Origin: a bacterium
GTDB lineage: Bacteria > UBA10199 > 2-02-FULL-44-16 > JAAZCA01
Direction: 5' to 3'
NCBI GenBank assembly: GCA_041658465.1
Contig: JBBAAC010000001.1
Span: 1 to 58,228 of the forward strand
Length of the DNA: 58,228 nucleotides
In this document: in pieces, positions 18,781 through 51,510 of the stretch
How the letters are laid out: every line of letters begins with the position of its first letter
How positions within the stretch are numbered: the stretch's first letter is position 1
Translations under genes and position numbers: made by a program
Notes under the pieces: model-generated
Seen by the model: only the letters and a program-made list of their open reading frames with translations
What the model was told of the DNA's origin: nothing
Databases searched by the model: none

Positions 18781-18860
18781 TCTACCCCACCCTATCCCTC
18801 CCCTTACAAAGGGGAGGGTACGTACCCCTCCTTTGTAAGGAGGGGCGGGGGGAGGTAGAT
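18781..18860. repeat. REP-like double hairpin
   Basis: tctaccccaccctatccctccccttacaaaggggaggg plus the inverted partner cccctcctttgtaaggaggggcggggggaggtagat. Confidence 0.85.
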
Positions 18861-23047: not shown

Positions 23048-23258
23048 CTGCGGAGTGGCACGCAGTAAGCGGGGTTCCGCCGTTTATCGATAGGCCGCGA
23101 ACAACGGCGCAGAATAAGCGGTGACCTGCGGCAGGCTTCGAGCAATGGGGACCGCGAAGGCTATAATTCCACCGTTAGCCGTATGAGCTGAGACCAACTC
23201 GGTGTCGGCTTGCGAGATGCCAGCCGCAGGTCGCCGCGTACTTCATGGCACGTAGCCA
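23048..23258. repeat. R-element, locus 2 (single unit, opposite orientation)
   Basis: gtggcacgcagtaagcggggttccgccgtttatcgataggcc...gcggtgacctgcggcaggcttcgagcaatggggaccgc...caccgttagcc...aactcggtgtcggcttgcgagatgccagccgcaggtcgccgcgtacttcatggcac is the reverse complement of the left unit at 47802-47995. Confidence 0.8.
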
Positions 23259-23340
23259 GGCGAATATTTGAATTCGGGCGTGACGCGCTGCATCAGTCGA
23301 TATCCTTGCTTTTCAAGCTGAAATCGGGTCTAAACGGCGC

Positions 23341-28911: not shown

Positions 28912-31515
28912 CTACGCCGGCTTGAATGAGAGACCGGCGACGCCGAGCCCGCCGGCAAGCGCAGCCTGCGCTGCGCCTTCGGCGGATGATTCGGAATCCG
29001 CTATCGCTTCTTCCTCGCTCATTTCTCCGTCAGCAGCAGGCGCTGCTTCGGTTGCAGCGGGCGCAGGGCTCTCTCCCGCAGACACGGGCCACGCAGCCTT
29101 TGCAACGTAGAACTGGATGACCTTTTCGAGCGGCACCTCATCCGGGCCGTGAGTCCCCATCGCGGCCTTGAAATCGTCGAGCGGGATATTGCGAAGCGCG
29201 GGCAGGAAACCGGCCATGCGGTTATAGATCGCCTTCATGGAACGGATGCGCGTGCGGTTTCTCAGCGCGAGGATCGCCCAGGTGCGACGGGCCTTCCACA
29301 CCAGCCCTGCGAACTCCTCCCCGCCAGCCGCCTTGCGCGAGGCGTTTGCAGCCTCCACGTCGTTCAACAGTGCCACCGACGCATAAAAAGCCTCGTCAAA
29401 TGCAGGCGCGCGCTGAAGCCTGGCGCATGCCGTGTCCCAGTGTGCCGCAAGGTCGCCAGCGTCGAAGGATCTCAGCTTAAACGATGCCTGCATGAATTCG
29501 CGCTCGTCCCTCTTGAGAATTCCCAGCGCGTCGTAGCCCTTGCCCATCCCCAGGGCCCGGGCGTCGTCCAATGACCTGCCGACTCCGTTCGCTGCGAGCG
29601 CCGCGAAGAGCCTTGAGAAGACAGGCCTCGCTGAGAGATTCGCGAATCGCCTGGCAACAAACTGCAGCGTGCGCGCTTGAGAATGCTTGTGCCAGCGGCC
29701 CATCTGGATTTCACGCGCAACGAGGAGACAGCATGCCGAAGCCGCCAGATCCATTGCTGACTTCACAAACGACTCGGTCCCCTCGCCGGGGCGTGCCATC
29801 GAGGCGCCGGCGACGCCGCAGAGGTTTTTTACGAGATCAGAGAGATCCTCTCCGGCCGACCTTGTCCTCAGGTCGGCCGCCAGCATGAATTCCTTGAGCG
29901 CGGACTCGTGCCTGGCCAGGATCAACGAGCGGACAGAAGGATCGGATATCTGCGTTGACCACGCCAGTTCATCCGGAGAGAGCTCGACCTCAGAGAAATC
30001 CGCAACGACCGCAATCGTCGGAGCCTCGGCGACTTCGCCGTACACCTCCGGCATCGTCTTGCTCAGCTGTCTCGCGATCGCAAGCATGAGGCCTTGTTCT
30101 GCAGGCGCGGCGGCGGAACCTGTGCCCGATATCCTGTCCGCCGTCGACTCCTGAAGAGACGATGCCATGCGAATGAAATCCGCAAATTTCATCTCCCTGC
30201 CGGATTCATTTGTCCGCTGCCATGCCTCGATGAGTTCCTCCGCATCGAGGGATACCCTCGCGAGGATCTGATCCGCCTTCGCGCGCGGGATACGTGCGCG
30301 CATCGCAAGCTCACCCAGCGCCGCGGAGCGATATGCGCCGCCGCACTCGATGAAGAAGCGGCGCATGATCCATGCATGGACACCGTTATCGCCCTCGAGA
30401 TTGAACCGCGTGAGGAGGCCCAGGAACTCCGCGAGCTGCACCGAGCGCGCAGCCGAAAGCGCCCACATTGCCCACGAGGATTCGTCCAGGCAGGCCGCAC
30501 CTTCGGCCGGCGCATGCAGCGCCATGGCGCCCCTGATGGCGTCCTGACTCTGCGGGTTGAGATCGTGTGGCCCTATGCCTGCGTCCTCTATCCCATCGAG
30601 GAGCGCGATCATTTGCTGCCGTGGCTTGTCCCGCGGCCTCACCTTTACGCCCGCGGAGATCTTCCCATCGTCCGAGAATCGCAGGCGGGCCCTTAAGTTT
30701 CTCATGTCCCAGACCAGTCTGGTATTGCCTACGGAACGCGACGCCCTGAACCAGAAGGGATCACTCGCCCTTATCGCGAGCAGCAGCAGCGGCTGCTCGG
30801 GAACCCCTCCGCCGTAGCGCATCGCCCGCCGCAGGAAGATGTGCCAGTACAGCTCCGTCCTGGGCTCCACCTTGCCCGCGGAAACCGCCTCCACCATACG
30901 AAACCAGCCGGCGTCGAAAAATTCCATATCTCCCGGCTTTTCGAGCAGTGACGTGAGCAGGACGACCGCCATCTGCTGTGAGAGCCTGCCGCCCTGCACC
31001 AACGGCTTTAAGATGGATAGCGCAAAATCGATCCGGTCGTTGCCGTCTCGCATGGTCCTGAAGACCTCGTTCGCAGCCGCAAGGATCTTCTGCTTCGTGC
31101 CGGCGACTATGTTCCCCTGGCGGAGACGGTCCAGCGCGCCAAGCCTCTCCGCGAGTTCGTCCTGCCCCTTGGCTGCGGAAATCGCCGCGAAGTTGCGCGT
31201 GCTGAATCTGAACCCGCCCACCAGATTTTCCTGGAAGCGGAATCGATGCCGCTCCGCGTATGCGATCATGAGGACAGGCAGTGCGGAATTGATCGACTTT
31301 TCTGCGAGATCGAACCCGTCGGCCCCGGAAGAGAACCTCTCCGCGTGCTGCCTCATCATGGCCGTAAGTGTGCAGTCAAAGCACTGCAGCAGATCGATTC
31401 TGTCCACCACGCCGCCCTGCTCATATGGCTGGGGCGGCGCCTTGCGGATGAACTCGAGGACCTCTGCCGCGAAGTTGAAATCTGCGCCTGGTACAGGTTT
31501 GACGGACATATGCAT
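28912..31515 (-). CDS. Orphan 867-aa protein, helical-looking, with an acidic Ala/Pro-rich C-terminal tail
   Basis: This is a long uninterrupted ORF in which I recognised no motif. The tail is ESPAPAATEAAPAADGEMSEEEAIADSESSAEGAAQAALAGGLGVAGLSFKPA. Confidence 0.6.
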   Translation of the reverse strand: MHMSVKPVPGADFNFAAEVLEFIRKAPPQPYEQGGVVDRIDLLQCFDCTLTAMMRQHAERFSSGADGFDLAEKSINSALPVLMIAYAERHRFRFQENLVGGFRFSTRNFAAISAAKGQDELAERLGALDRLRQGNIVAGTKQKILAAANEVFRTMRDGNDRIDFALSILKPLVQGGRLSQQMAVVLLTSLLEKPGDMEFFDAGWFRMVEAVSAGKVEPRTELYWHIFLRRAMRYGGGVPEQPLLLLAIRASDPFWFRASRSVGNTRLVWDMRNLRARLRFSDDGKISAGVKVRPRDKPRQQMIALLDGIEDAGIGPHDLNPQSQDAIRGAMALHAPAEGAACLDESSWAMWALSAARSVQLAEFLGLLTRFNLEGDNGVHAWIMRRFFIECGGAYRSAALGELAMRARIPRAKADQILARVSLDAEELIEAWQRTNESGREMKFADFIRMASSLQESTADRISGTGSAAAPAEQGLMLAIARQLSKTMPEVYGEVAEAPTIAVVADFSEVELSPDELAWSTQISDPSVRSLILARHESALKEFMLAADLRTRSAGEDLSDLVKNLCGVAGASMARPGEGTESFVKSAMDLAASACCLLVAREIQMGRWHKHSQARTLQFVARRFANLSARPVFSRLFAALAANGVGRSLDDARALGMGKGYDALGILKRDEREFMQASFKLRSFDAGDLAAHWDTACARLQRAPAFDEAFYASVALLNDVEAANASRKAAGGEEFAGLVWKARRTWAILALRNRTRIRSMKAIYNRMAGFLPALRNIPLDDFKAAMGTHGPDEVPLEKVIQFYVAKAAWPVSAGESPAPAATEAAPAADGEMSEEEAIADSESSAEGAAQAALAGGLGVAGLSFKPA

Positions 31516-31588: not shown

Positions 31589-32779
31589 TCAGCTGCGGAG
31601 CATGGCGGGAAGGTGCGCCCTAATGCGCTCTGCAGCCATCGCGCACTCCTCGATCGAGGGCACCAGGGCCAGGCGGACAAAGCCCTCCCCGGGATTCCCG
31701 TCCGGCGTGGGCTCGCTTATCCAGTTGCCGGGCGTGGCCACTATGGCGATCGACGGATCCAGGAGCTTCTCGGCAAATGCCACGGATGTTATTCCCTCCG
31801 GCACGCGCTGCCAGATGTAGAGCGTGGCTGCCGGCCTGCACTCGGGAAGCCCTGCGGCAACGAATGCATCGACGATGAGGTCGCGCTTCTGGCGATAGAG
31901 CTGGCGGAGATTTTCCACATGCGACTCGTCCGAGAGCGCTGCTGCGGCCGCGTCCTGGATAAATGTAGGCGTGCCGGAGTCGATGTTGGTCTTGAGCTTC
32001 TTGAACGCGGAGACGATCTCGCTGCCGCCCGCCACCCACCCCACGCGATAGCCGGTCATGCAGCTGCGCTTTGAGAGCGACTGAAACGCGATCACTCCAT
32101 CCTTAGCGACCTCGAGCATCGAGTGCGGTGCCTCGCCGTAGTAATTCTCCGTGTACGCCTCGTCCGACGCGATGACGATGTCGTTCTTGCGGCCGAACTC
32201 GACTACCTCTTTCAGGAACGCAAGCGGGGCCACGGCGCCCGTGGGGTTGTTGGGATAATTCACCCACATGAGCCTGGCGCGGCGGCGTATATCCGCGGGA
32301 ATCGAATCCAGGTCAGGCAGAAATCCGCGCTCCTCGTGGAGGTTCACGTAGTGGACCTGCCCTTCTGCAAATCGCGTCCCGCGCGTATAAGGCGGGTAGC
32401 CTGGGTTCGGCACGATCACCACGTCGCCGGGATCTACGATCGCCTCGTGAAAATTGAAGACCGCTTCCTTGGAGCCGATCGACGCGGAGATCTCGGTCTC
32501 CGGGTCGAGCTTCACGCCAAAGCGCTTTTCAGTCCACGCAGCGATGGCGCCGCGGTATTCCTTTGATCCTACATAGGACGGATACCCGCTCGATGCGCGC
32601 ACATCCACATACTTTTTGATCGCGGAGCGCACGATCTCCGGCGCGGGCTCGGTGGGGTCACCCACCCCGAAGTCGATCACCTTTGCGCCGGACGCACGCA
32701 GATCAGCCACCTTCTTATCGATCTCGGCAAACGCATAGCCTGTGAGCGAAGAAAGACGTTTGGAAATCGTGATAATCAT
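31589..32779 (-). CDS. Class I/II aminotransferase, probably an LL-diaminopimelate aminotransferase-like enzyme
   Basis: The N-terminus has IDFGVGDPTEP and the PLP lysine context is SLSKRSCMTGYRVGW. NYPNNPTG is present. The length is 396 aa. Confidence 0.65.
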   Translation of the reverse strand: MIITISKRLSSLTGYAFAEIDKKVADLRASGAKVIDFGVGDPTEPAPEIVRSAIKKYVDVRASSGYPSYVGSKEYRGAIAAWTEKRFGVKLDPETEISASIGSKEAVFNFHEAIVDPGDVVIVPNPGYPPYTRGTRFAEGQVHYVNLHEERGFLPDLDSIPADIRRRARLMWVNYPNNPTGAVAPLAFLKEVVEFGRKNDIVIASDEAYTENYYGEAPHSMLEVAKDGVIAFQSLSKRSCMTGYRVGWVAGGSEIVSAFKKLKTNIDSGTPTFIQDAAAAALSDESHVENLRQLYRQKRDLIVDAFVAAGLPECRPAATLYIWQRVPEGITSVAFAEKLLDPSIAIVATPGNWISEPTPDGNPGEGFVRLALVPSIEECAMAAERIRAHLPAMLRS

Positions 32780-33079: not shown

Positions 33080-33165
33080 GCGCAACATTTTCCTTTGCCT
33101 GCCGATAATAATAAAGTGGGGGTCGGCCCGTCAGGGTAAGTGATAGTAAAATCAACGAGTTAACC
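33080..33165 (+). promoter_or_regulatory. Conserved 5' leader/promoter block of the EF-hand/HExxH gene family (copy 1)
   Basis: gcgcaacattttcctttgcctgccgataataataaagtgggggtcggcccgtcagggtaagtgatagtaaaatcaacgagttaacc matches 37417-37502 with roughly 12 mismatches and one indel. It contains a gataataat -10-like box. Confidence 0.45.
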
Positions 33166-34851
33166 GTGCCTGGCACCAAGTCCATATCCGAGGTCAAGGA
33201 TCTCTACGACCTCATCGAGCTCTATGCGAACCTCGATCGCAACAACGACGGTTTGCTGGGGCCCGGTGAAGTGTCAGCCGAGGAGATCAAGGCGGGAGAT
33301 AAGGAAAGCCCATCCGCTGGCGTACCGGATGGATTTCTTCAGCCCTGGGAGGTCATGGAGATGCGGGGCCCCACGGTCTTCAATCCCGTGGAGACGATCC
33401 GGATGAGGTCGTGGAACAAAGAGGCAGCATATAAAGGGTTCCCCGATATCCCATCTCTTCCTCGAGACGTCGAGATCGGCGGTGTGACCTACAAATCCGG
33501 AACGCCACTCCCCTTTCATTTATGTACACATTATTCAAGGGTCGCGGGCGGCGTACTCGCAAGGCCGACAATACTTCCATCAATACCGCAAATCACTTTT
33601 CCAGCGGATTCAGTAATGTCTTTTAGCTATGACTTCCATAGCTCGAATATTCGCACGCTCTCTGTTGTCTTAGGAGCAGATGCCACCATTAACGGAGTCT
33701 TTTGCAAAAAGGATACCCGCCTCTTTTTTAGTGATGGAAAGCTGTCCATGATTCAATCTGAACAAGGTTTTCTCATAAACAATGTGCGATATATACTCGC
33801 ATACTTCAAGGATGGGGCATTGGACTTCGGAGATCTCGCTGAAACTGCACGTCTTCCCGTCAATCAGCGCACTTCGTATCTCTTTCAGGGACGAGTTCAA
33901 TTCAATCGACGCGGCATGGTCAAATCAGGAAATCTTGCAGAGGATGTCCCAAGCCCTTATGGCGCACGTTACAAACACCCCGCAGGCGCTTATATCTCTT
34001 TCTTTGCTGATGGGACGCCAATGGAAGGTACGGTTGAATGTTTCAAGGCGCATTTCCCCGGCATTGTGCTTTCGGGCTCAGTCTCAGAAAAAGACATCCT
34101 GCTGGCTATGGAGACTTTCTCTCAACTGAGTCCGCAGACGCTCGCCAACATCAAAGGCATCCGTTTCCAATATGAAGAGTTGCCAACTACATTGGGAGAC
34201 AAGGCTGGTGGTTATGCAAATCCTTTTAACAAGACTATCTATATGAGAAAGGGCAACGCAGATTCGCCGACTGTCTCCTCTATCGCCCATGAAGCAGCAC
34301 ACATAAGGCATCTCACGCTCCAGGAGGAAACCACAAAACGCATCGCTGCTGCTACGCGACACCTAGATCCCTCGAACCCGAATGATATGGTCGAAGATGC
34401 CGCTATCACACGGCAAATTTTCTCAAGGAGTTTCGATGCAAAGTGGAGTCGTGCAGCAAGATATGATTTCAGCTTCTCGATCGCAGACCTTATCTCGTAT
34501 CAGCGTTCTTTGAAACAGTACGACGAAGGACACACCAGAACGAAAGTCAGCGACACTACTGACTATCCAAAAGAGGGATTCATAAATGACTACGGACGAG
34601 TGAGCATATGGGAAGATATTGCGACGCATGTACAAATGACCTACGAAAATCCCGAAAGATATGCGCAACTGATTGATGCCTATTCTTCTTTTTATTTAGA
34701 GCACCCCGACCAACGCCCCTATGCGCAGGTCTATCGCGCTAAACTGGAACTCCTGCGCGAATACGGCTTCATCACCGAGGCAAAGTACCGCGAGATCGTG
34801 CCGGTGCATCCTGACGTGGTCGCGTTCTGCGGGGCCGTGAATTGTCCGTAA
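33166..34851 (+). CDS. EF-hand plus MORN-variant-like repeat plus HExxH (HEAAH) protein, paralog 1
   Basis: It has a GTG start, and the upstream frame is closed by tga/tag/taa. The EF-hand loop DRNNDGLLGPGE is canonical. Repeats are FFSDGKLSMIQ, YFKDGALDFGDL and FFADGTPMEGTV. The HExxH context is SIAHEAAHIRHL, with a downstream EDIAT. The C-terminal end is YGFITEAKYREIVPVHPDVVAFCGAVNCP. Confidence 0.7.
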   Translation: MPGTKSISEVKDLYDLIELYANLDRNNDGLLGPGEVSAEEIKAGDKESPSAGVPDGFLQPWEVMEMRGPTVFNPVETIRMRSWNKEAAYKGFPDIPSLPRDVEIGGVTYKSGTPLPFHLCTHYSRVAGGVLARPTILPSIPQITFPADSVMSFSYDFHSSNIRTLSVVLGADATINGVFCKKDTRLFFSDGKLSMIQSEQGFLINNVRYILAYFKDGALDFGDLAETARLPVNQRTSYLFQGRVQFNRRGMVKSGNLAEDVPSPYGARYKHPAGAYISFFADGTPMEGTVECFKAHFPGIVLSGSVSEKDILLAMETFSQLSPQTLANIKGIRFQYEELPTTLGDKAGGYANPFNKTIYMRKGNADSPTVSSIAHEAAHIRHLTLQEETTKRIAAATRHLDPSNPNDMVEDAAITRQIFSRSFDAKWSRAARYDFSFSIADLISYQRSLKQYDEGHTRTKVSDTTDYPKEGFINDYGRVSIWEDIATHVQMTYENPERYAQLIDAYSSFYLEHPDQRPYAQVYRAKLELLREYGFITEAKYREIVPVHPDVVAFCGAVNCP

Positions 34852-34889
34852 AGGCCAACTGCCGATGCACATGCAGGCCATCTCTCCTC

Positions 34890-34918
34890 TGGACAAAACC
34901 CGCTTAATAACTTATAAT
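34890..34918 (+). promoter_or_regulatory. Sigma-70-like promoter (TGGACA-17 nt-TATAAT) immediately upstream of the parE-like toxin
   Basis: The -35 is at 34890-34895 and the -10 at 34913-34918. The ATG at 34927 lies only 8 nt after the -10, implying a leaderless or near-leaderless mRNA. Confidence 0.35.
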
Positions 34919-34926
34919 GTCCATAA

Positions 34927-35190
34927 ATGTGGACAGTTAAAATATCTTCCCAGGCGGGTCGTTTCTATGCCTCCCTTCAGGGGAGGGAACAAGCGAGGGT
35001 CGCTGCGGCCCTTGACCAGCTCGCCCAGGATCCCCGAACGGGCAAATCCCTCAGGGGTGAACTGAAGGGTTACTGGTCGTACAGGGTCGGCGTCTATCGC
35101 ATTCTGTACTCGATCGAAGAACATGAAGTCGTCGTTCACATCCTTCGCATTCAGCATCGCAAGGAGGTCTACGAACGCTTCAGGAGGTGA
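34927..35190 (+). CDS. RelE/ParE-family type II toxin
   Basis: LRGELKGYWSYRVGVYRILYSIEEHEVVVHILRIQHRKEVY matches the PF05016 pattern (KL.G....yRiRvGdyRiiY.i......i..i.hRkd.Y). Confidence 0.8.
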   Translation: MWTVKISSQAGRFYASLQGREQARVAAALDQLAQDPRTGKSLRGELKGYWSYRVGVYRILYSIEEHEVVVHILRIQHRKEVYERFRR

Positions 35191-35192
35191 CT

Positions 35193-35465
35193 ATGGCTCA
35201 GCTCATTTCGGTCTCGAAGGCAAAACAGCGGCTGCTGGAACTCGCCAGGCGCTCTCACGATCAGGGCGAATCCTTCATCCTGCTCAGGGACGGAGAGCCC
35301 GTGAGCGCCATGATTCCGTTTGATGAATACGAGTCCCTGCTGGAGACGCTGGACATCCTGGAAGACGAACCCGACATCCTCTCCAAACTCAAACGCGCCG
35401 AGAAAGAAATGCGGAAAGGAAAATTCGCCGTCTGGAAGGGAAGAAAACCAGCGCCCACCCGTTGA
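35193..35465 (+). CDS. Phd/YefM-family antitoxin (encoded downstream of its toxin)
   Basis: AGGAGG lies 5 nt upstream. The sequence reads ISVSKAKQRLLELARRSHDQGESFILLRDGEPVSAMIPFDEYESLLETLDILED. The toxin stop abuts the ribosome-binding site. Confidence 0.8.
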   Translation: MAQLISVSKAKQRLLELARRSHDQGESFILLRDGEPVSAMIPFDEYESLLETLDILEDEPDILSKLKRAEKEMRKGKFAVWKGRKPAPTR

Positions 35466-35501
35466 CCCGACTTTCTCCGGATGAACCATTTGTTGCATAA
35501 T

Positions 35502-35591
35502 TACGGCTTCATCACCGAGGCAAAATACCGCGAGATCGTGCCAATGCATCCCGACATGGCCGCGTTCTGCCAGACCGTGAATTGTCCATAA
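35502..35591 (+). pseudogene. Orphan 3' terminal fragment (29 codons plus stop) of a third EF-hand/HExxH family gene
   Basis: tacggcttcatcaccgaggcaaaataccgcgagatcgtgccaatgcatcccgacatggccgcgttctgccagaccgtgaattgtccataa encodes YGFITEAKYREIVPMHPDMAAFCQTVNCP*. It has 8 mismatches in 90 nt to the 3' end of the 37503..39467 gene. No upstream gene body is present. Confidence 0.85.
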
Positions 35592-35674
35592 TTCGCATTT
35601 TCCTTTGACGCTGAGAGAGAGAATGGTTATAATTCTGACCATAAGGGGTCGGCCTTAGGCACGGGAGGTTCTGC

Positions 35675-35941
35675 ATGAAATCTATCAAGGCGACGGATGC
35701 GAAGAAACATCTGCTGGAAATCCTCCGGGATGCAGACGAGTCCTTTGAGCGCTACTGCATCACTCGAAACGGCGAGCCGAAGGCGATCCTCATGTCCGTG
35801 GACGATTATGAGGGATGGCTCGAAACCCTGGCAATCTTAAGCGACAAGAAGGCGGTGGCGGAAATTCGAAAGGCCCGCAGGGAGCTGAATGCCGGCAAAG
35901 CGATCCCTTTCGAAAAAATCCTGGAGAAGCTCTGTGCCTGA
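35675..35941 (+). CDS. Phd/YefM-family antitoxin
   Basis: IKATDAKKHLLEILRDADESFERYCITRNGEPKAILMSVDDYEGWLETLAILSD. It overlaps the downstream toxin by 8 nt. Confidence 0.85.
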   Translation: MKSIKATDAKKHLLEILRDADESFERYCITRNGEPKAILMSVDDYEGWLETLAILSDKKAVAEIRKARRELNAGKAIPFEKILEKLCA

Positions 35942-36194
35942 ATATCGCATTGTCTTTGCGCCAACAGCTGAGAAGCAATTGTTTGCGCTGACCAGGACCA
36001 TCCGCCTGCGCGTGGCTCATGCCATCGCAAAACTCGCCGATGATCCATTCTTGGGGAAACAGCTCAAAGGCGACCTCAAAGACTACCGATCCTGGCGAGT
36101 TGGAGATTATCGGGTCGTCTACTTTATCCGGAAGCATATCATTCAGATCGAGATCGTACGCATCGCGCATCGTCGCGAAGTCTATCGGCACTGA
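35934..36194 (+). CDS. RelE/ParE-family type II toxin (GTG start)
   Basis: VPEYRIVFAPTAEKQL...LKGDLKDYRSWRVGDYRVVYFIRKHIIQIEIVRIAHRREVY. The GTG at 35934 overlaps the antitoxin stop (gtgcctga). Confidence 0.8.
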   Translation: MPEYRIVFAPTAEKQLFALTRTIRLRVAHAIAKLADDPFLGKQLKGDLKDYRSWRVGDYRVVYFIRKHIIQIEIVRIAHRREVYRH

Positions 36195-36255
36195 CTTCGC
36201 CGATCCTGCCTTGACGCCGTGCCGATGCATGAAGAAGTCGCCGTCTTAGTAATGT

Positions 36256-37308
36256 TCACGCGATGCGGTAGAGACTCCCCTTCCTTGAACCTTCCATCGC
36301 TATGAGTCCACCCTGCTTCATGCGCGCGAGAATCGCCTTCAGCGTCACGCGTTTGATGCCTGAGTTGCGCTCCAGGAATCCGATGCTCGCGGGCTGATGC
36401 AGGCGGATGAGACCCAGCACTTTTTCTTCAAGGACCGTGAGAGTCCCAGACTTCTTCGGCATCCATTGCTTTTGCAGATAGTTTGCCTGCTGCTCAAGGG
36501 CGTTCAGGAAAAAGAGGAACCACGGGTTGATGTCTGCAGTCGCCTTGAGCGTTGCCTGCGTTTGCCGCAGAGCGATGTAATAGCCCTCCTTGTTATCCTC
36601 CACAACCTTCTCATGCGATGAATACATGCAGAATTCGTATCCCAGCTTTATAAGACACAGATTCGTGAGCAGCCGTGCCATGCGGCCGTTGCCGTCGCGA
36701 AACGGGTGGATCGCGAGGAATTTGACGATGAATGCCGCGATGACCTCCAGCTCTGAATAGTTCAAGTCACCGATGAACGCGTTGTAATCGTCCACGAGTT
36801 CGCGCATCTCGACGTCGGTCTGAACGCCCGGCGGCGTGGTCTCAAAGATTATCTCCCGCTCGCCCGTCGCGTGATCGATGCGTACGACGGAATTCGGGAC
36901 ATTCTTGTACGCGCCCCTCTGGTTCGCGGGGAGCACATCATTTGAAAGATATGAGCACATCATCTGGTGCAGCGATCGGACCGAGTGCTCGCTAATTTCG
37001 ATTTCGCGATAGTGGTCGAAGATATGGTGCAGGCAATCGATATAGCCCGCGACCTCCGCCTCGTCTCGGTCGTGGATCTTTTGAATCTTGAGCCCCTCAA
37101 GGCGTGCGACGATCTCATCATCGGAGAGCTTCGCCCCCTCTATACGCGTCGAGGCGCCTGCGGAGGTGATGATCGTGGTTTTCTTGAGTCCGGCGTAGAG
37201 ATCTCGGCTCGCCTCTTTTGAAATCTCCCACAGTTCTCTGAATGCACTTATGGCCTGAATTTTTTTCAGGACCTGCGGATTGAGCGGTGATTTGAGGAAG
37301 TTTCTCAT
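36256..37308 (-). CDS. Fic-family protein (AMPylase-type) with an intramolecular inhibitory motif and a C-terminal winged-helix domain
   Basis: The Fic motif is HPFRDGNGRMARLL. The N-terminal inhibitory motif is STRIEGA, of the form (S/T)xxxE(G/N). The C-terminal wHTH-like tail is IGFLERNSGIKRVTLKAILARMKQGGLI. The start was chosen at MRNFLKS; the tracked start at 37344 would run through direct-repeat DNA. Confidence 0.8.
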   Translation of the reverse strand: MRNFLKSPLNPQVLKKIQAISAFRELWEISKEASRDLYAGLKKTTIITSAGASTRIEGAKLSDDEIVARLEGLKIQKIHDRDEAEVAGYIDCLHHIFDHYREIEISEHSVRSLHQMMCSYLSNDVLPANQRGAYKNVPNSVVRIDHATGEREIIFETTPPGVQTDVEMRELVDDYNAFIGDLNYSELEVIAAFIVKFLAIHPFRDGNGRMARLLTNLCLIKLGYEFCMYSSHEKVVEDNKEGYYIALRQTQATLKATADINPWFLFFLNALEQQANYLQKQWMPKKSGTLTVLEEKVLGLIRLHQPASIGFLERNSGIKRVTLKAILARMKQGGLIAMEGSRKGSLYRIA

Positions 37309-37416
37309 ACCATTAAATATGCCATATAATATGCCATAAATCAATTAAATCCATAAAATACCCCATATTTTATACCAAATACCTGCCTGAGAAACGACTG
37401 ACAGCCATATATACAG

Positions 37417-37502
37417 CGCAACATTTCCCTTCGTCAGCCGATAATAATGATGTGGGGGGTCTGCCCGTCAGGGCAAGTGACAGTAAAACCAACGAGTTAA
37501 TC
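37417..37502 (+). promoter_or_regulatory. Conserved 5' leader/promoter block of the EF-hand/HExxH gene family (copy 2)
   Basis: See 33080-33165; this is the same block with one extra g. Confidence 0.45.
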
Positions 37503-39467
37503 GTGCCTGGCACCAAATCCATATCCGAGGTCCGGGATCTCTACGACCTCATCGACCTCTATGCGAACCTGGATCGCAGTGGGGATGGGCTCATCGGTGC
37601 CGGAGAGATGCCCGCCGAAGAGATCAGCAAGACCGACGTCGGCAGTACGCCGTATGAAAAAAACCGGCCCGATGGATTTCTCGCACCGTGGGAGATCATG
37701 CAGCGTCAGGCGCGTTTCTTTGGCTCCACCGAGGTCGCGCAAATGCGCACCCAAAACCAGGCGTCACTCGGCAGCGCCTTTTCGGACATCATGAGCCTTC
37801 CAAAGGATGTCGCCTTTGGGCCGCTCAGGTTTAAGGTCCATACGGCCTTGCGTTTCTGGCAGAATGGACGCATCCAGGAAGCCACGCTCGCTGAGCCCAC
37901 CGACATCTCCGTGCTCGCGCGACAATGCCACATGCACACGCCTCCAGATGATGGCGACCTGAAATCGCTCCCGGCAGGCACAAGGATATGGCTTGATCCG
38001 GACGGGACGCTCAAGGAGATCGAGCTGGGCGGCCCCGCGCACATCAGGGGAATAGACTTCACTGCCGGCATTCGGATCAGGTTCAAAGGGAATAAGAAGA
38101 TCGGGGAAGCAGATGCAACACACGAACCGATTGTCATAAACAACATTGCCTACACTCGAGTCGTTTTCCTTGAAAACGGCGATCAAGTCCGGACCCTGAA
38201 GGACGATACCTCAGTGCCGTTTTTGCGTCTCGTGTATAGTTACAATTATTTCGGGTCTGTCGCTGACTCCAAGACGAGCGTAAGCCTTCCCTGTAAAGCA
38301 AAGACTGACGTCCGGTTCAATCCTGATAGGTTTGCTATTCAGGGTGTGCTTGCCCAGGGCCAACGCATGTTTGAATATGAAGGCAAGTCCGGCGGTCTGG
38401 AAGTCGCACTTCCCCCAGGCACCAAAATACATGTCGGCGACGGAAGCGTGACTCAATTCCGCGCAGAACTCGGCGATGACTTCAGATTTCAAGGTGTGCA
38501 TGCGGGGCAAGGCGATATTTTTGAGGAAATCAGTGAAAGAGATCTGGAAGGCATGATCGATGCAAAATGGTATTTTACGAATGAATATGTCGTCCGACTC
38601 AGATCGAATCATGGCAGCATCCGCATCGGCGGTGTGCACGCCACGGAGGCAACAATCGATGCGGCCGGCGTTGTATGGGCAACGCTCGCGGGGGATTTCC
38701 AAAGCCCCTATGGCAGCGGGAGGGTCTATCGAGCCGGTGAAAATGTATTTCTTTCAGCAGATGGAAGATTTCTGGAACCGACGATGAAGTGTTTTGAGAC
38801 ACTGTATCCGGGAATCAAACTTTTCGGCGTCAACAATGCCAACGAACTCTTGCATATCCTGACGGGCATGGCGGCCCTGCCCCCTGCTATACGGAGAAGC
38901 CTCCGAAAGGTCAGCTTCGTGGATGATTTTGATTACTCCCGTCATCCTGATATTCCATGGTTCGCTAGCATTAAGGGAGAAGCTGATCCTGTCGACATTG
39001 GTAGTTTTCGACTAAGTCGGTACTCTTCGTTGCAAGGAAGCATGCATCCAGATCAGAGAGGCGAATTGCGTTTCCTCCACGAGGCAGCGCACGTGCACAC
39101 GCTTCGAGTTGGCGAAGAGTTTAAACGAAAATGGCTGAAGGTTGAATATTCCCTTTTACCAAAATGGATTCAGGAACGGTTGAAGGCCGAAGGTCTCGAG
39201 ATAAATAATACCATAGAAGCTTGCATCACTGAATATGGATGCAGGAATTTTTATGAAGATGTCGCGACGATGACTGAAGCAGCGACCTTTAAGCCGACCT
39301 TGTTTCGACGGTGGATTGATCCCGGAGTTCACAGGCACGCCCCCGCCTTCCGCGCCAAGCTCGATCTCCTGCGCGAGTACGGCTTCATCACCGAGGCGAA
39401 GTACCGCGAGATCGTGCCGGTGCATCCCGGAATGGCCGCGTTCTGCCAGGCCGTGAATTGTCCGTAA
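37503..39467 (+). CDS. EF-hand plus MORN-variant-like repeat plus HExxH (HEAAH) protein, paralog 2 (a 17-codon upstream extension to 37452 is possible)
   Basis: The GTG start is homologous to paralog 1. The EF-hand loop is DRSGDGLIGAGE. Repeats are FWQNGRIQEATL, WLDPDGTLKEIEL and LSADGRFLEPTM. The HExxH context is FLHEAAHVHTL, with a downstream EDVAT. The C-terminal end is YGFITEAKYREIVPVHPGMAAFCQAVNCP. Confidence 0.7.
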   Translation: MPGTKSISEVRDLYDLIDLYANLDRSGDGLIGAGEMPAEEISKTDVGSTPYEKNRPDGFLAPWEIMQRQARFFGSTEVAQMRTQNQASLGSAFSDIMSLPKDVAFGPLRFKVHTALRFWQNGRIQEATLAEPTDISVLARQCHMHTPPDDGDLKSLPAGTRIWLDPDGTLKEIELGGPAHIRGIDFTAGIRIRFKGNKKIGEADATHEPIVINNIAYTRVVFLENGDQVRTLKDDTSVPFLRLVYSYNYFGSVADSKTSVSLPCKAKTDVRFNPDRFAIQGVLAQGQRMFEYEGKSGGLEVALPPGTKIHVGDGSVTQFRAELGDDFRFQGVHAGQGDIFEEISERDLEGMIDAKWYFTNEYVVRLRSNHGSIRIGGVHATEATIDAAGVVWATLAGDFQSPYGSGRVYRAGENVFLSADGRFLEPTMKCFETLYPGIKLFGVNNANELLHILTGMAALPPAIRRSLRKVSFVDDFDYSRHPDIPWFASIKGEADPVDIGSFRLSRYSSLQGSMHPDQRGELRFLHEAAHVHTLRVGEEFKRKWLKVEYSLLPKWIQERLKAEGLEINNTIEACITEYGCRNFYEDVATMTEAATFKPTLFRRWIDPGVHRHAPAFRAKLDLLREYGFITEAKYREIVPVHPGMAAFCQAVNCP

Positions 39468-39612
39468 TCTGAACCCTCATCGCATAAGAGCCCACAGCAT
39501 TTTGCTGATCTCCGCTCTTCAATCTGCTGATCTCAGATCTAAAATCTCAAACTGCGATGGTGAGGCGATGATACTGCGACGGTACGTCGACGGTGAAGCG
39601 ATGATACGGCGA

Positions 39613-41127
39613 TCAAATTCGTTCTTCCTTCACCTCCGTACCATCGTACATTATTCTCGTCGGCACGCCCTCGGAGATCGTCTCTATGCCCACCGGCCGG
39701 CGCCATAGCTTGTAGAGATTCTTTAGCGTGGCCTGGGCGTAGTCGTCCTTCAGATCCACGCCCTCGTGGGTATGCTTGAGCAGGAGCTCGCCGCGGTTGC
39801 GGAAGTTGCCCTCCACGACGTCGATGATCGGGTGGCCGAAGTTCGTGAGCTGAAAGAGAAACTGCTTCTTGATCTTGTCGAACTCGCGCGACGCTATCCT
39901 CATCTCCTCGTGCGTGAGGTCGTACGCATAGACGAAGAGCCTGTGCTCCTGGCAGAATTCCGGGGTGAGGAACTCATCGATGAATGTCACATCCGAGTAA
40001 AGCCTGCGGACCTCGAATATCTTCTGACGGCCGAGGCCGAGTTTGCGGTCCCAGTTCTTCCTGGCCACCATATCGTTGCAATCATCGTACTCCTTGCCGA
40101 ACTTGCCCTTGTTCCAGCGATCCTCGATGTCGCGGTAGAGCTCGAGCCCTATCTTGTAAGGATTCACGCGCGTCGGACCCATGGCGACCGTGCCCGAATG
40201 ATGATCCGCATAATCGATCACCTCCGAGTCCTTGAGCGCCTTCTCGGTCATGATCCTGGAGTGCCAATAACTCGCCCACCCTTCATTCGCGATCTTCGTC
40301 TGCCCCTGCGGCGCGAAGTAGTACGTCTCCTCGCGGATGAGGGAGAGCACGTCGCGCTCCCACTTCTCGAGCGGAGCGTAGTCCAGCAGGAAGAGGAGCA
40401 CGTCTTTTTCCGGTCTTTCAGGGAATTTCTTCTCCTCCTTTGCCTCTTCATCGAGCGCCCTGCGCTGCTCATCCAGAAACTCCTGGGGGTTCACGAACTT
40501 CTCCATGTACGGCCGCCCCGCGCGCAGCGTGTGGATCGGGCGCCTGGCGCTCGCGTCCTCCGCCGACGGAGGACTGCGCCGCTTGATGGCCGGCGCGTGG
40601 TAATCGATGAGCGTGTCGAGCGAAAGGCAGGCGTCGACGAAGGACTCGACGTTGTCGTGGCCGTACGCATCGATGTAGCGCATGATGCGCGTCTTGTGGT
40701 TGGCCATCTCGTCCATCATCTTGCGGTTCGTGTGCGCGAAGTAGACGTTGTTCTTGAAGAAGTCGCAGTGCGCGTAGACGTGCGCCATCACCAACTTCTG
40801 GTCCACGATGCCGTTCGAATAGAGCAGATAGGCGTAGCAGGGATCGGTGTTGACCACCATCTCGTAGATCTTGGAAAGCCCGTATGCGTAACTCTTCGAG
40901 AGCTCCTCGTATTCCATGCCGAAACGCCAGTGCGGGTAGCGGTTGGGAAACCCGCCGTACGCCGCCACTTCGTTTAGCTGATTCCAGTCGAGCACCTCGA
41001 AGATCACGTCGAAGAAATCGAGCCCGTAGCCCCGCGCATAGCTCTCTATCTCGTGCTTGAGCGCAGCCAGCTCGGATGGCAGCGAGGTCATGTACTTGGA
41101 AACGCTCTTTGGGTTGTGCTGTATCAT
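39613..41127 (-). CDS. spoVR: SpoVR-family protein
   Basis: [43 protein letters not shown] and [12 protein letters not shown] are typical of SpoVR/YcgB. Its ATG overlaps the yeaH stop (ATGA). Confidence 0.85.
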
Positions 41128-47697: not shown

Positions 47698-47801
47698 CAA
47701 AGGGAATATATCGGCATTCCGTACTGTTGACAAGGAGTTAGAAAGCTACGTACCACAAAGCGAGCAGGGCTCCCGGCCCTCTCGGCGAACGAGTCAACAC
47801 C

Positions 47802-48215
47802 GTGCCTAAGTACGCGGTGACCCACGGCTGGCATCTCGCAAGCCGACACCGAGTTGAGCTCAGATCGTATGGCTAACGGTGGATTTTCAGCCACCGCGGT
47901 CCCCATTGCTCGAAGCCTGCCGCAGGTCACCGCTCGCTCCGTGCCACTGATCGTGGCCCATCGATAAACGGGGGAAACCCGCTTGCTATGTGCCACTACG
48001 CGAGTTGAATCAAGGCGCAGGACGAGCGGGGTCCCCAGCCCAGCTTCGAGCAATGGGGACCGCAAAGCTAGTGATTCACCGTTAGCCTTATAAGTTGAGC
48101 TAAACTCGGTATCGGCTTGCGAGATGATGGGCTGGGGACCCCGCTTGAGCAGTGGCGATGGACAAGGTGCGTGAGGACGGAGCCAGCCGTGGGTCACCGC
48201 TTGCTTTGCCTGCAT
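47802..48215. repeat. R-element, locus 3: best-preserved composite copy, with perfect 19-nt terminal inverted repeats
   Basis: gcggtgacccacggctggc (47813-47831) is the exact reverse complement of gccagccgtgggtcaccgc (48183-48201). The internal arms pair as ccgacaccgagtt/aactcggtatcgg, ggctaacggtgga/tcaccgttagcc and gcggtccccattgctcgaagc/gcttcgagcaatggggaccgc. Confidence 0.85.
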
Positions 48216-48938: not shown

Positions 48939-50297
48939 CTACCGGGCGCGTTTGTTGATCCCGTATTTCTTGGCCTTGTACTGCAGCGTGGTTCGCTTCA
49001 TTCCCAGTTTGGCCGCGGCCTTGGTGAGATTCCATCCCTCATCCTTGAGCGCTTCGAGAAGGATCTCTTTCTCTATGGCGGTGATCTTTCCCGCCACTCC
49101 AGGCTTCTCGCGCGCCAGGCCCCTGACTCCTTTATCAGTGCCGACGATTTTGGGCGGGAGATGGGCGGGAGTAATCGTGCCCTCGACGGCAGCGAGGACC
49201 GCATGGGCCATGGCATTTTCAAGTTCATGAGCATTGCCGGGCCATCCATATGTCTTGAGAAATCCGACCGCCTCAGGAGAAAGGCTCGCCTGTTTGTGCA
49301 GCTCGTCGTTGTACCTGCGGAGGAAATGCGCAGCCAGCTCCGGGATGTCGTCCGCGCGTTCCCTAAGCGGCGGCAGGGCGATGGTGCTTACGCCGAGGCG
49401 GCCCTGAAGCCCGATGCGGAAACTCCCGCCATGAACCGCCTCGCTAAGATCCGTAGCCGTGGAAGCGATTATCCGCACATTCGCCTTTAGGGGCTCCGTG
49501 CCACGCACCCGCTGAAAGATCGACTCCGCCAGAAAGGCCTCGAGCTTCGACTGAGTCCCGGCGCCCAGCGCATTGATCTCCTCAAAAAAGAGAGTCCCTC
49601 CTTCTGCGAGTTCGATCTTCCCCAGGCGCAGCTCCTCGCTCGACTCAGCCGATTCCTTTTCCGATCCGAAGATCTCCAGGTCGAGAACAAACGGGTCGAG
49701 CGCCATGCAATTGATAACGACGAACGGCTTGTCAGCACGGCCGCTCCTGTTATGTATCTCCCTCGCAACCAGCGATTTACCCGTGCCGCTGCTGCCGACT
49801 ATGAGCACGGGCTTCGAGAGCTGTGCTGCGGCCTCTATGTCGCGGAGCACGACCTTCATCGCAGGGCTCTCATAGATGAGAGAACCGCTCTTCTTTGCAG
49901 CGGACTCCTTTGTCATCCGGCGTTCTTCCAACAAATTACGCCTCTCCAGCGCCCTCTTGATCTTGAGATCGATCTCTTCGGACGAGAACGGCTTCAGAAC
50001 GTAATCGAACGCGCCCTGTCTCATCGCCTCCACCGCATTCTCTATCGTCCCGAATGCAGTGATTACGATTACCATCGTTGACGGCGATATCTCCCTGACC
50101 TTGCGGAGGACCTCCATACCGTCCATCTCCGGCATCCGAAGATCGGTTAGGAGCACATCGAAGGATTCGCGTCTGACCTTGTCGATCGCCAGGTGACCGT
50201 CGGCCGCGATATCCACGCCGTAGCCCTTGCTCGTAAGGAAATGCCGTATGATCTCGCACATCTCCTTGTTGTCGTCCGCTACGAGTATTTTGCTCAT
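48939..50297 (-). CDS. NtrC-family response regulator (REC, AAA+ and Fis-type HTH domains) lacking the GAFTGA loop
   Basis: The REC domain is KILVADDNKEM...DVLLTDLRMPEMDG. Walker A is GSSGTGKS. The C-terminal HTH is NLTKAAAKLGMKRTTLQYKAKKYGI. At the GAFTGA position the sequence is FGSEKESAESS. Confidence 0.8.
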   Translation of the reverse strand: MSKILVADDNKEMCEIIRHFLTSKGYGVDIAADGHLAIDKVRRESFDVLLTDLRMPEMDGMEVLRKVREISPSTMVIVITAFGTIENAVEAMRQGAFDYVLKPFSSEEIDLKIKRALERRNLLEERRMTKESAAKKSGSLIYESPAMKVVLRDIEAAAQLSKPVLIVGSSGTGKSLVAREIHNRSGRADKPFVVINCMALDPFVLDLEIFGSEKESAESSEELRLGKIELAEGGTLFFEEINALGAGTQSKLEAFLAESIFQRVRGTEPLKANVRIIASTATDLSEAVHGGSFRIGLQGRLGVSTIALPPLRERADDIPELAAHFLRRYNDELHKQASLSPEAVGFLKTYGWPGNAHELENAMAHAVLAAVEGTITPAHLPPKIVGTDKGVRGLAREKPGVAGKITAIEKEILLEALKDEGWNLTKAAAKLGMKRTTLQYKAKKYGINKRAR

Positions 50298-50344
50298 AAT
50301 TATTACATCATGTAGCATAGCCCATAATTAATGTAAATTTCAGA

Positions 50345-50461: not shown

Positions 50462-50884
50462 TCAAACGGGATAGTGCTTACGAATGTATTTCACGAACTC
50501 TTCAAAATCACCAAGGCGTTCCGCGATGACCGTGTAGAGCTGTTCCAGATCGATATCCCAGTAGATGTGGACGAGGCGATTGCGAAACCTTGCCATCTTC
50601 TTCATCTCCTCCGCAAAGTCAGACGGCAGTATTCCGCCCTTCTCCAGGAGTGAAAACGTATCCTGGTAACTCCGGGGAATACCCAGCCGCTCCTGCGCCA
50701 CGATATGATTTCCGACAGAGAGACACGCCTCGATGGCAAGCTGCAGCGCATGCATCACCGCATATTGCCTTTCCTTGTTCTTCTGAAATTGCGCGGATGT
50801 GATATCCGAAAGATCTTTGAGGTCTTTCGTCAACGAGAGAATCTCCTGCGTCCTCTTCTGCAAGGTTGCGATGTCCACAGCCAT
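50462..50884 (-). CDS. hepT: HepT-like HEPN-domain (DUF86) toxin
   Basis: The Rx4H motif context is RNRLVHIYWDID. The length is 140 aa. Its start overlaps the upstream MntA stop (ATGA). Confidence 0.8.
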   Translation of the reverse strand: MAVDIATLQKRTQEILSLTKDLKDLSDITSAQFQKNKERQYAVMHALQLAIEACLSVGNHIVAQERLGIPRSYQDTFSLLEKGGILPSDFAEEMKKMARFRNRLVHIYWDIDLEQLYTVIAERLGDFEEFVKYIRKHYPV

Positions 50885-51510
50885 CAGGAAGCCTCCTTGA
50901 GGTCTTTGTAGGCGTCCGCATAAAAATGATCGAGGACCGGGGAATAATCCAGGTATCTAGTGATGACGCCCTCTTCAAAGGCTGCAAGCGACTCATGCGA
51001 CCTTACGTAGATCGCCGAACCATCGCGAATGACCCTGTACTGAATTGCAACAGGCGCTGAGTTCAAGCAGACAAGATCGATGCGCGTTGCGTTGGGAACA
51101 ATCTCAAGCACGCATGCCTCCAACTTCGCCTCAAGATCGAATGGAGAAGATGATCGATCGTCCAGGTAGGCGACATCGATGTCGCTCAAAGGCGTGGTCG
51201 CTCCCGTGGCCTGAGAGCCAAAGAGATAGAGGAGCTGGATTTCCGTGAGAGAGGCAAAACGATGCGCATTCGCGTGCATGAGCTGCGTTAACGGGACTTT
51301 TTCTTTACCAGCTTCTTTCGACATGCCGCCGGTTTTCATCTGCGATTTTATCCACTCGCCCAGCACATCCTCTGCGAACAGCCAGGCCTTGCCGATCTTG
51401 ACCGCGGGGATCAGGCCCTTCGCGGCCTTGCGATAGATGGTCATCGGGTGCACGCCCAGCCACTTCGCAACCTCCTGAACGGTCAACAGTCTTGGCAATG
51501 TCTTGGACAT
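50884..51510 (-). CDS. mntA: MntA-like minimal nucleotidyltransferase antitoxin fused to an N-terminal excisionase/MerR-type HTH
   Basis: The HTH is LLTVQEVAKWLGVHPMTIYRKAAKGLIPAVKIGKAWLF. The NTase motif is LFGSQATGATTPLSDIDVAYL (GS...DxD). Confidence 0.75.
   Translation of the reverse strand: MSKTLPRLLTVQEVAKWLGVHPMTIYRKAAKGLIPAVKIGKAWLFAEDVLGEWIKSQMKTGGMSKEAGKEKVPLTQLMHANAHRFASLTEIQLLYLFGSQATGATTPLSDIDVAYLDDRSSSPFDLEAKLEACVLEIVPNATRIDLVCLNSAPVAIQYRVIRDGSAIYVRSHESLAAFEEGVITRYLDYSPVLDHFYADAYKDLKEAS

Follow-up and report, generated by a model that had tools for sequence, protein, structure and literature searches.

A candidate recombination-driven array of EF-hand/HExxH protein genes interleaved with toxin–antitoxin modules in an uncultivated bacterial lineage

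The window analysed here is a 58,228-nucleotide (nt) stretch of contig JBBAAC010000001.1 (assembly GCA_041658465.1), whose host belongs to an uncultivated, deltaproteobacteria-like lineage. At positions 33080–39467 it carries an array of two full-length, plus-strand paralogous genes, A and B, which share nearly the same ends around widely diverged cores, and which enclose five further features; two ParE–Phd toxin–antitoxin (TA) pairs and a Fic gene lie between them. We propose, with moderate confidence, that homologous recombination at the common ends drives this hypervariable array and that TA modules have become trapped in its junctions, where they possibly stabilize it. We give about even odds to the view that a hypervariable gene family specific to this lineage has an expansion hot-spot here.

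Paralog A (33166..34851, plus strand) is an open reading frame (ORF) of 561 amino acids (aa) with a GTG start, and paralog B (37503..39467, plus strand) is an ORF of 654 aa, or of 671 aa if started at an in-frame GTG at 37452. A blastn comparison of the two matched their ends only. The 5′ block (33080–33289 versus 37416–37626) is 83% identical (E=1.6e-58), with 89.6% identity over the first 163 nt, and the 3′ block (34735–34851 versus 39351–39467) is 88.9% identical (E=1e-37). The 5′ block begins 86 nt before the GTG start, and the 3′ block ends exactly at the stop codon. In a sliding window along a protein-guided codon alignment, nt identity was 0.84 at the start, 0.3–0.5 in the core and 0.8–0.9 at the end; the cores are about 40% identical and differ by a large indel. 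Synonymous divergence (dS) tells the same story, at 0.29 over the last 39 codons and 1.95 over the whole gene, against 0.72–1.0 for housekeeping genes compared between this genome and the sister genome described below. By this measure the cores predate the end blocks, and the genes read as mosaics.

A third copy of the 3′ end lies between the paralogs. The 3′ module of A (34735..34851, plus strand, detected as repeat D1) is common to B (39351..39467, plus strand, a repeat match to A) and to an orphan (35475..35591, plus strand), whose well-aligned part, 35502–35591, matches the final 90 nt of both genes at 89–91% identity. The orphan has an intact 36-codon ORF from 35481 (MNHLLHNYGFITEAKYREIVPMHPDMAAFCQTVNCP) that encodes the constant tail only, and which other assemblies annotate as a gene of 36 aa. 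The two 117-nt modules at 34735–34851 and 35475–35591 are direct repeats that flank the first TA pair. When A and B were searched against the whole window by tblastn, no partial copy was found besides this orphan.

The cargo between the paralogs consists of recognizable genes, all four TA genes and the Fic gene scoring above the Pfam gathering thresholds (23 bits for ParE_toxin and 29.8 bits for PhdYeFM). Pair 1 is toxin-first, with a ParE/RelE toxin (34927..35190, plus strand; ParE_toxin, 6e-13, 49.6 bits) followed by a Phd/YefM antitoxin (35187..35465, plus strand; PhdYeFM_antitox, 5e-10, 39.4 bits) that overlaps it by 4 nt. Pair 2 is antitoxin-first, with a Phd/YefM antitoxin (35675..35941, plus strand; 3e-18, 65.7 bits) and a ParE/RelE toxin (35889..36194, plus strand; ParE_toxin, 6e-11, 43.3 bits); the public gene call starts this toxin at 35934 (86 aa), which shortens the overlap from 53 nt as ORFs to 8 nt. 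Each pair is preceded by its own sigma-70-like promoter on the plus strand, TGGACA-17-TATAAT at 34890..34918 and TTGACG-17-TATAAT at 35605..35633, both with 11/12 matches. The Fic-domain protein (36256..37344, minus strand; Pfam Fic, 2.7e-14, 54 bits) carries the inhibitory motif STRIEG at aa 65 and the active-site motif HPFRDGNGRMAR at aa 213, which satisfy both the Fic signature HxFx(D/E)GNGRxxR and the inhibitory signature (S/T)xxxE(G/N). It matches the PADLOC SoFic model over nearly its full length (E=4.3e-36) and reaches 50 bits against the NCBIfam SoFic model, whose cut-off is 550; we call it SoFic-like rather than an equivalog.

The array sits between core genes. To its left is an aminotransferase gene (Aminotran_1_2; 31589..32779, minus strand; 81% aa identity to the sister genome), and to its right is SpoVR (39613..41127, minus strand; 91% aa identity), the first gene of a SpoVR–YeaH(DUF444)–PrkA core cluster. 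The nearest named homologs of PrkA come from groundwater metagenome-assembled genomes (MAGs) labelled ‘Deltaproteobacteria bacterium’. Guanine–cytosine (GC) content is 0.522 in the island, and 0.604 and 0.575 in its flanks. An initial annotation made from the letters alone had listed the two paralogs, the orphan 3′ end, the two ParE–Phd pairs and an autoinhibited Fic gene, within a patch of lower GC; all are present, both Fic motifs included, and the uneven conservation that it described persists once the genes are properly aligned.

Three other assemblies, ERZ27247322, ERZ27249422 and GCA_041645305.1, independently contain the array at an identity of at least 99.9%, and on this ground we consider it real and no assembly artefact. 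The NCBI MAG contig JBAZQG010000084.1 ends at 38582, within the variable core of B and not at a repeat, and near its other end it shows nine clustered single-nucleotide polymorphisms (SNPs), at 30779–30865, in a gene for an 867-aa protein; the contig break and the SNP cluster may reflect strain heterogeneity. Between the convergent stops of B and SpoVR, at 39555–39612, there are three direct repeats of 22–25 nt (CGAYGGTGARGCGATGATAC...).

Recurrence in a sister genome and the portable leader

A scan of GTDB genomes with the family alignment found only one further genome, the MAG SKS1.bin41 (GCA_021810905.1), on three contigs. Its PrkA, YeaH, SpoVR and aminotransferase proteins are 81–95% identical to those of the window, with dS of 0.72–1.0. 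One of its loci, L001, is a 17-kb low-GC island with the same interleaved pattern. It runs from a HEPN/MNT module through a family leader with the paralog P0006, an opposite-strand lipoprotein gene and a 34-nt tail remnant to a YafQ/HTH module, a leader with P0005, an AbiEii/AbiEi module and a leader with P0004. There follow a DUF4116 protein with a caspase-like region, which ends in the family tail (HPDIAAFCAREAVNCPQ), a second AbiEii/AbiEi module, the family leader placed before a 256-aa N-terminal Asn amidohydrolase-like gene, and a PDC-S01 type ATPase (PADLOC, 3e-52). At another locus, L009, a tail remnant is followed by a ParE/Phd ortholog of the window’s pair 1 (83% nt identity) and by a leader remnant with 16 N-terminal codons, at a chromosomal site different from that of the window pair. 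The orthologous toxin (L009 10220–10483) and antitoxin (L009 10480–10755) have dS of 0.82 and 1.03, respectively.

Taken over both genomes, every junction (7/7) is occupied by TA or Abi genes; five families plus Fic are represented, and in 6/7 a tail or tail remnant lies directly to the left. One junction has been duplicated as a unit: L001 7948–9991 and 14217–16259 are 98.9% identical over 2044 nt, and this segment, set between unrelated cores, spans exactly the final 36 nt of the tail, AbiE and the leader. P0005 and P0006 share a 5′ block of 293 nt at 96% identity.

Family members occupy the site beside SpoVR in three genomes (B here, P0007 at L008 and P0008 at L011), and their mutual aa identity is 28–37%. 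Because dS between B and P0007 is saturated, whereas the adjoining SpoVR genes have a dS of 0.83 and are 91% identical, the SpoVR-adjacent genes are not in-place orthologs. The occupant of this site appears to have been replaced from an old and diverse pool.

Two details of L001 deserve mention in their own right. Just before each AbiEi gene there is a perfect 32-nt palindrome (9682–9713 and 15951–15982), which is probably an AbiEi autoregulatory operator. P0006 (L001 1630–3339) is without the beta-repeat domain and the Cys tail of the family, and carries instead about 230 additional C-terminal aa, the last of which read ...GFAILF; this end looks like an outer-membrane beta-barrel terminus, though the protein is without a signal peptide.

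The 5′ module of A (33080..33165, plus strand; repeats D2 and D4, and alignment) consists of a promoter-like motif, CAACA-N14-GCCGATAAT, and a leader of about 50 nt up to the GTG start, in which a Shine–Dalgarno sequence is not obvious; the same motif and leader precede B (37416..37502, plus strand; repeat and alignment). Over the 50 nt before the start, the leaders of A, B and the three L001 paralogs are 86–90% identical. For comparison, housekeeping genes show a proportion of synonymous differences (pS) of 0.46–0.55 and an identity at four-fold sites of 0.49–0.62, and the promoter region of TA pair 1 is unalignable between the two genomes. The CAACA-N14-GCCGA motif is invariant, even in the distant single-copy loci L003 and L006. 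Since identity of this non-coding DNA exceeds the synonymous-site background and the motif persists in distant orthologs, conservation of the 5′ block points to a functional promoter and leader, beyond the effect of conversion alone. In our judgement the putative promoter resembles those of the extracytoplasmic function (ECF) type. Folding of four leader copies gave z-scores of -0.6 to +1.0, with no significant RNA structure. A metagenome-wide scan with the leader 18-mer GCCCGTCNGGGNAAGTGA returned 119 loci, none with extended similarity, and on that ground we regard them as chance matches. As the leader precedes an unrelated gene and the tail ends an unrelated protein, both are portable functional modules.

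The leader also bears on where B begins. Its G-run (33117–33123 and 37453–37460) has five G before A and six before B and in the sister-genome copies, and the length of the run decides whether the upstream GTG falls in frame. We rejected the GTG at 37452 as the start of B: the frame is broken in A (a G-run of five versus six), the sister-genome copies have a TAG, and all homologs begin at MPGTK or its equivalent.

We therefore arrive at the following working model, each step of which is conditional. The portable 5′ module (promoter-like motif, leader of about 50 nt and first ~25 codons) and the 3′ module (last 30–40 codons) would both provide the homology on which non-allelic recombination of the RecA type and gene conversion act. 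Such exchange would homogenize the ends and replace or swap the cores, leading to non-orthologous genes at one site in sister genomes; it would also leave orphan ends and move junction segments composed of tail, TA module and leader. The junction modules would persist through post-segregational killing, which would counter-select their loss by recombination between direct repeats, and addiction or defence modules in the junctions would thereby stabilize the array, as in chromosomal integrons. The direct 3′ repeats around ParE/Phd could have arisen when a circle with one homology segment plus cargo integrated by a single crossover, or through deletion of a former third paralog.

A modular protein family with a zincin-like domain

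All motifs of A and B lie on the plus strand. A has an EF-hand-type loop, DRNNDGLLGPGE (aa 24–35; 33235–33270), a degenerate second loop, DGFLQPWE (33328–33351), a domain of beta-repeats (about aa 100–280), the motif HEAAH (aa 375; 34288–34302), EDIAT (34612–34626), and, at the 3′ end of the gene, a C-terminal helix, YGFITEAKYREIVP, with the tail FCGAVNCP (34825–34848). B has the corresponding EF loop DRSGDGLIGAGE (37572–37607), HEAAH (aa 526; 39078–39092), EDVAT (39255–39269) and the tail FCQAVNCP (39441–39464). Neither protein has a signal peptide. The initial annotation could not assign this protein architecture, with its TA and Fic cargo, to a described system. A and B had no match in Pfam, NCBIfam or PADLOC, and none reaching significance in a PDB sequence search.

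A word-indexed search of 5.8 billion protein clusters gave six matches with A as query, A included, and four with B, among which were both B and A; B has no relative above 30% identity in these clusters except A (37% over 36% of the query), and the closest homologs of A are P0002 (51%) and P0003 (47%). With a seven-member profile and full HMMER, 981 proteins were found among 1.84 billion representatives. Across these relatives the domains are modular, and the family, which is undescribed, combines an EF-hand motif, MORN_2-like beta-repeats and a divergent zincin-like HExxH domain.

The N-terminal module always begins at residue 1 (MEISxIRS..DL.NFY..D.N.NGKLE in many proteins) and is often found in proteins with Pfam MORN_2 calls. 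Both DRNNDGLLGPGE and DRSGDGLIGAGE satisfy the canonical 12-residue pattern D-x-[DNS]-x-[DNS]-G-x-[ILV]-x-x-x-E, and D24, D28, G29, G32 and E35 are invariant in seven homologs. The Pfam EF-hand models do not match A or B, and relatives stay below the cut-offs, P0013, for example, matching EF-hand_6 at E=8e-5 and 22.5 bits against a cut-off of 25; a profile of 58 sequences searched against PDB gave a weak match to troponin C (E of about 0.4). In its central stretch of beta-repeats the family profile matches MORN_2 proteins (P0013, P0018 and P0025), and these profile-found relatives alone score above the MORN_2 cut-off (51.7 bits for P0013), with no match to PF07661 in A or B. Of the features that the initial annotation had named, the EF-hand loops are canonical as motifs; Pfam calls neither EF-hand nor MORN_2 in A or B.

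The C-terminal domain (HExxH...W...YG...ED[IV]AT...KLDLLxEYGFIT) is also found in many further proteins, in which a signal peptide often precedes it. Across 58 relatives the H, E and H of HExxH are invariant, and its W, Y, G, E and D residues are invariant or nearly so. The FCxxVNCP tail is present in just 16 of the 152 sequences examined. The best Pfam match of this domain, to DUF6782, is below threshold (E=0.099; 12 bits versus a cut-off of 27), a literature search on DUF6782 found nothing relevant, and the 58-sequence profile gave no PDB match for this domain. An AlphaFold2 model of full-length A had a mean predicted local distance difference test (pLDDT) score of 77.5, with 42–48 in the N-terminal region; the model of the peptidase domain, built with 58 sequences, reached a pLDDT of 89.8 and a predicted TM-score (pTM) of 0.88. 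It places HEAAH on a long helix (86–112) behind a small beta-sheet, and a later helix starts at E483 of EDIAT, which is kept in at least 90% of the 58 relatives and is a candidate third metal ligand. When both models were compared with PDB and BFVD by Foldseek, the top matches were nearly all zincins, among them anthrax lethal factor (LF), the putative peptidase 4l7a, MtfA, Wss1, selecase, and viral IrrE and SprT. The domain is a divergent zincin-like one without a close solved relative, and its motifs and predicted fold make it probably a gluzincin. Calcium binding and protease activity of A and B would follow from the same motifs. The variable MORN_2-like beta-repeat domain is likely to be the part that recognizes a target.

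Two HExxH proteins encoded beside the family loci, at L009 and L010, were considered as members and rejected, as hhalign found similarity only around HExxH.

Competing explanations and the wider window

The recombination model has to be weighed against a simpler history, in which tandem or segmental duplication was followed by divergence, purifying selection kept the ends, and TA and Fic genes are selfish insertions in a permissive low-GC island, with no recombination-driven exchange. Several observations favour this history and weigh against ours. The 3′ block encodes KLDLLxEYGFIT, the most conserved helix of the superfamily, and both this helix and the EF-hand module are kept in hundreds of distant relatives. 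In the assembly ERZ27247322 the 3′ module of A has three variants (population variant L012), all of them synonymous. The fraction of identical codons in the 3′ block of A and B, 16/21, is little above the 0.58–0.69 of housekeeping genes, and identity of the ends across genomes (85–90%) is near the within-genome level, as selection predicts. Given the conserved helix, the synonymous variants and a codon conservation only slightly above background, part of the end conservation is plain purifying selection. The dS contrasts come from small end samples of 23–40 codons. TA modules may accumulate in any permissive island.

Other points count against ongoing exchange in particular. The initial annotation had raised the prospect of alternative junctions, and none was present in the four assemblies compared, which gives no direct sign of ongoing rearrangement. 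We considered whether ParE/Phd had lately passed horizontally from one of the two genomes to the other and rejected this, as its dS of 0.8–1.0 equals that of housekeeping genes; being as old as the genome split, the pair has not moved recently. The distant homologs (P0002, P0003, P0019 and P0009; L003–L006 and L134) occur as single copies in unremarkable surroundings, with neither TA nor mobile cargo nearby, and the array is for that reason a feature of a narrow clade. The linkage of homologs to such cargo that the initial annotation had looked to therefore holds for the sister genome, where the TA-interleaved pattern recurs, and not for distant homologs.

Duplication and selection nevertheless leave much unaccounted for. 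The dS of the 3′ ends of A and B is not only far below that of the cores but also lower than the divergence between the two genomes; a tail–AbiE–leader segment is duplicated almost perfectly between unrelated cores; dS is saturated at the fixed position beside SpoVR; and a TA or Abi module stands in each of the seven junctions, with a tail to the left of all but one. On balance this history is possible, and we think it rather unlikely.

A second alternative sees A and B as a new anti-phage or conflict family of intracellular sensor-proteases, in which the hypervariable beta-repeats would recognize proteins of an invader, the zincin domain would be the effector, and the locus would be a defence island. 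The neighbourhood fits well, with SoFic (4e-36) and PDC-S01 identified by PADLOC together with AbiEii/AbiEi and HEPN/MNT, and so do the low GC, the lack of a signal peptide and the extreme divergence at a fixed locus. The cargo that shares the leader or tail, the caspase-like DUF4116 protein and the Asn amidohydrolase-like protein, consists of protein-modifying enzymes. Such features would suit a role of the family in biological conflict, whether as defence or as effectors. However, A and B match nothing in PADLOC, Pfam or NCBIfam, homologs are found as single copies among housekeeping genes, many members of the superfamily have signal peptides and are apparently secreted, and there is no phage-related evidence. 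Neither experiment nor PADLOC speaks for a defence role of A or B, which also weighs against the recombination model, as do the weak zincin matches, with E values of at least 0.016 overall and at least 0.04 for solved zincins, and TM scores of at most 0.45. The HExxH that the initial annotation had pointed out lies in a zincin-like predicted fold, whose similarity to solved zincins is weak. We regard the anti-phage account as doubtful.

A bolder version of the recombination model would treat the segments of tail, TA or Abi module and leader as recombinase-free mobile addiction cassettes that use the conserved family ends, in a host family of calcium-regulated conflict proteases co-regulated through the portable leader. 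Campbell-type integration would be one route, leaving direct tail repeats around ParE/Phd; the proteases would act in phage defence or in antagonism between bacteria, and the leader would also drive unrelated protein-modifying cargo. We put this forward as speculation, and think it improbable.

The initial annotation had likened the locus to polymorphic-toxin or antigenic-variation systems, in which an expressed gene swaps its core with silent or orphan cassettes. Conserved ends around variable cores, an orphan 3′ fragment and non-orthologs at one locus all recall such systems. In the event, the idea of exchange is supported by the mosaic ages, the recurrence and the replacement of cores, whereas the analogy fails at several points. 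Both copies are complete, each with its conserved leader. The orphan is a constant 36-codon tail with no variable part, and because it carries this tail alone it could not donate diversity. The C-terminus is constant, with no variable toxin tip, and the downstream genes are TA pairs; no immunity-like small gene, known secretion or trafficking domain or signal peptide was found, and the junctions are identical in four assemblies. A swapping locus of this kind is very improbable. An integron- or shufflon-like array with the ends as sites of a site-specific recombinase is scarcely credible despite its integron-like look, with interspersed TA modules under their own promoters, since the blocks are coding sequence or a promoter-leader without significant fold (no dedicated attC model was run) and neither the scanned ORFs of the 58-kb window nor the called genes of 22 kb of L001 include an integrase, recombinase or transposase.

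If the recombination model is right, the array is a compact natural case of general homologous recombination making and keeping a hypervariable array without a dedicated recombinase, in which TA and abortive-infection modules take the stabilizing role known from chromosomal integrons. The work also defines an unannotated superfamily of about 1000 detectable members with an EF-hand module, MORN_2-like repeats and a zincin domain. Common to otherwise unrelated enzymes, the Cys-containing C-terminal tail is a candidate new sorting signal and the conserved non-coding leader a candidate new regulatory element. The array pattern is known from two closely related uncultivated genomes, from sequence alone.

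The rest of the window has features of its own. Permissive searches of the island and a search of the whole window gave no Rfam match. Intergenic repeats of ~100–340 nt with 78–93% identity, one copy inverted, occur at 10237–10663, 23050–23259 and 47801–48139; they have internal inverted repeats, a tandem 32-mer lies at 10625–10690, and, lacking an Rfam match, they could be an element like miniature inverted-repeat transposable elements (MITEs) or repetitive extragenic palindromic (REP) sequences, or a non-coding RNA not yet known. Shorter intergenic repeats (40–80 nt, 91–95% identity) lie 3′ of several genes, at 12056–12136, 18781–18860, 54620–54703 and 57865–57907. Adjacent paralogs without an assigned function or a Pfam match, at 15598–17175 and 17240–18622 on the minus strand, share 77% nt identity over 624 nt, and a 2500-aa ORF at 1361–8863 (plus strand) is likewise without a Pfam match. 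The 867-aa ORF mentioned above (28912–31515, minus strand; no Pfam, NCBIfam or PADLOC match) fills the interval between DUF5684 and the aminotransferase, which in more distant relatives is the place of their only family gene (P0002, P0003). SpoVR of related genomes contains an intein that has a LAGLIDADG domain (L003 14818–17538), and some PrkA homologs (P0199, P0231 and P0232) carry inteins likewise. ATP-citrate lyase subunits (52719–55980, minus strand) suggest a reductive tricarboxylic acid cycle. A sigma-54-dependent response regulator is encoded at 48939–50318 (minus strand), and a fusion of HTH_17 with a nucleotidyltransferase (Polbeta/MNT-like; 50884–51510, minus strand) adjoins an RNA ligase gene (51608–52585, minus strand), which together could be a further small conflict or repair module outside the island.

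Comparison with known systems

The nearest formal parallels are arrays in which short conserved stretches bound variable modules. In the cdiA-CT/cdiI and rhs-CT/immunity arrays such stretches permit swaps by recombination and leave orphans behind, and polymorphic toxins combine a variable C-terminal toxin tip with a neighbouring immunity gene and a defined apparatus for secretion. In this array, in contrast to contact-dependent inhibition (CDI) and Rhs systems, both termini are constant and the middle is variable, there is no immunity gene, and the orphan is constant only; Pfam domains of the CDI, Rhs, LXG and Maf systems are absent from A and B. The silent cassettes of pilS and vls are promoterless and variable and serve one expression site, whereas the sole partial copy in this array is constant.

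Chromosomal integrons offer the closest functional analogy. Sedentary examples such as the Vibrio superintegron likewise hold TA modules with their own promoters among repeat-bounded cargo. Loss of a TA module by recombination between repeats would kill the cell, so that the modules stabilize the array, and we propose the same effect here. TA cassettes in chromosomal integrons have been found to kill the cells that excise them (PMC13108822), and this integron paper was the only relevant result of a literature search on TA modules combined with tandem paralogs. Integrons have an IntI tyrosine recombinase, attI and attC hairpins, whereas no integrase and no attC sites were found here (no dedicated attC model was run), and the repeats consist of coding ends and a promoter-leader that belong to a single protein family. 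With repeats that are family ends, and without an integrase or attC, exchange would need general homologous recombination. The array is also tiny beside the Vibrio superintegron, with two full copies here and three to four in the sister genome. The classical polymorphic-toxin, silent-cassette and integron models each fail on defining features that were tested.

At the level of the proteins, the predicted placement of HExxH on a long helix after a small sheet, with a candidate ligand Glu on a later helix, resembles that in the LF/MtfA gluzincins, Wss1/SprT, selecase and IrrE. The family differs from these known zincins in its extra conserved motifs (W, YG and KLDLLxEYGFIT), and matches none of them significantly. 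Many MORN_2 proteins of the YwqK type also have the EF-hand module at their extreme N-terminus; the family of A and B differs in joining such repeats to a zincin domain, and Pfam MORN_2 is undetected in A and B.

Defence islands resemble the locus in that they too are low-GC patches between core genes, with SoFic-like, ParE/Phd, AbiE, HEPN/MNT and PDC-S01 components. What sets the array apart from them is the placement of its modules, which lie strictly in the junctions of one paralogous family, beside its tail and leader sequences.

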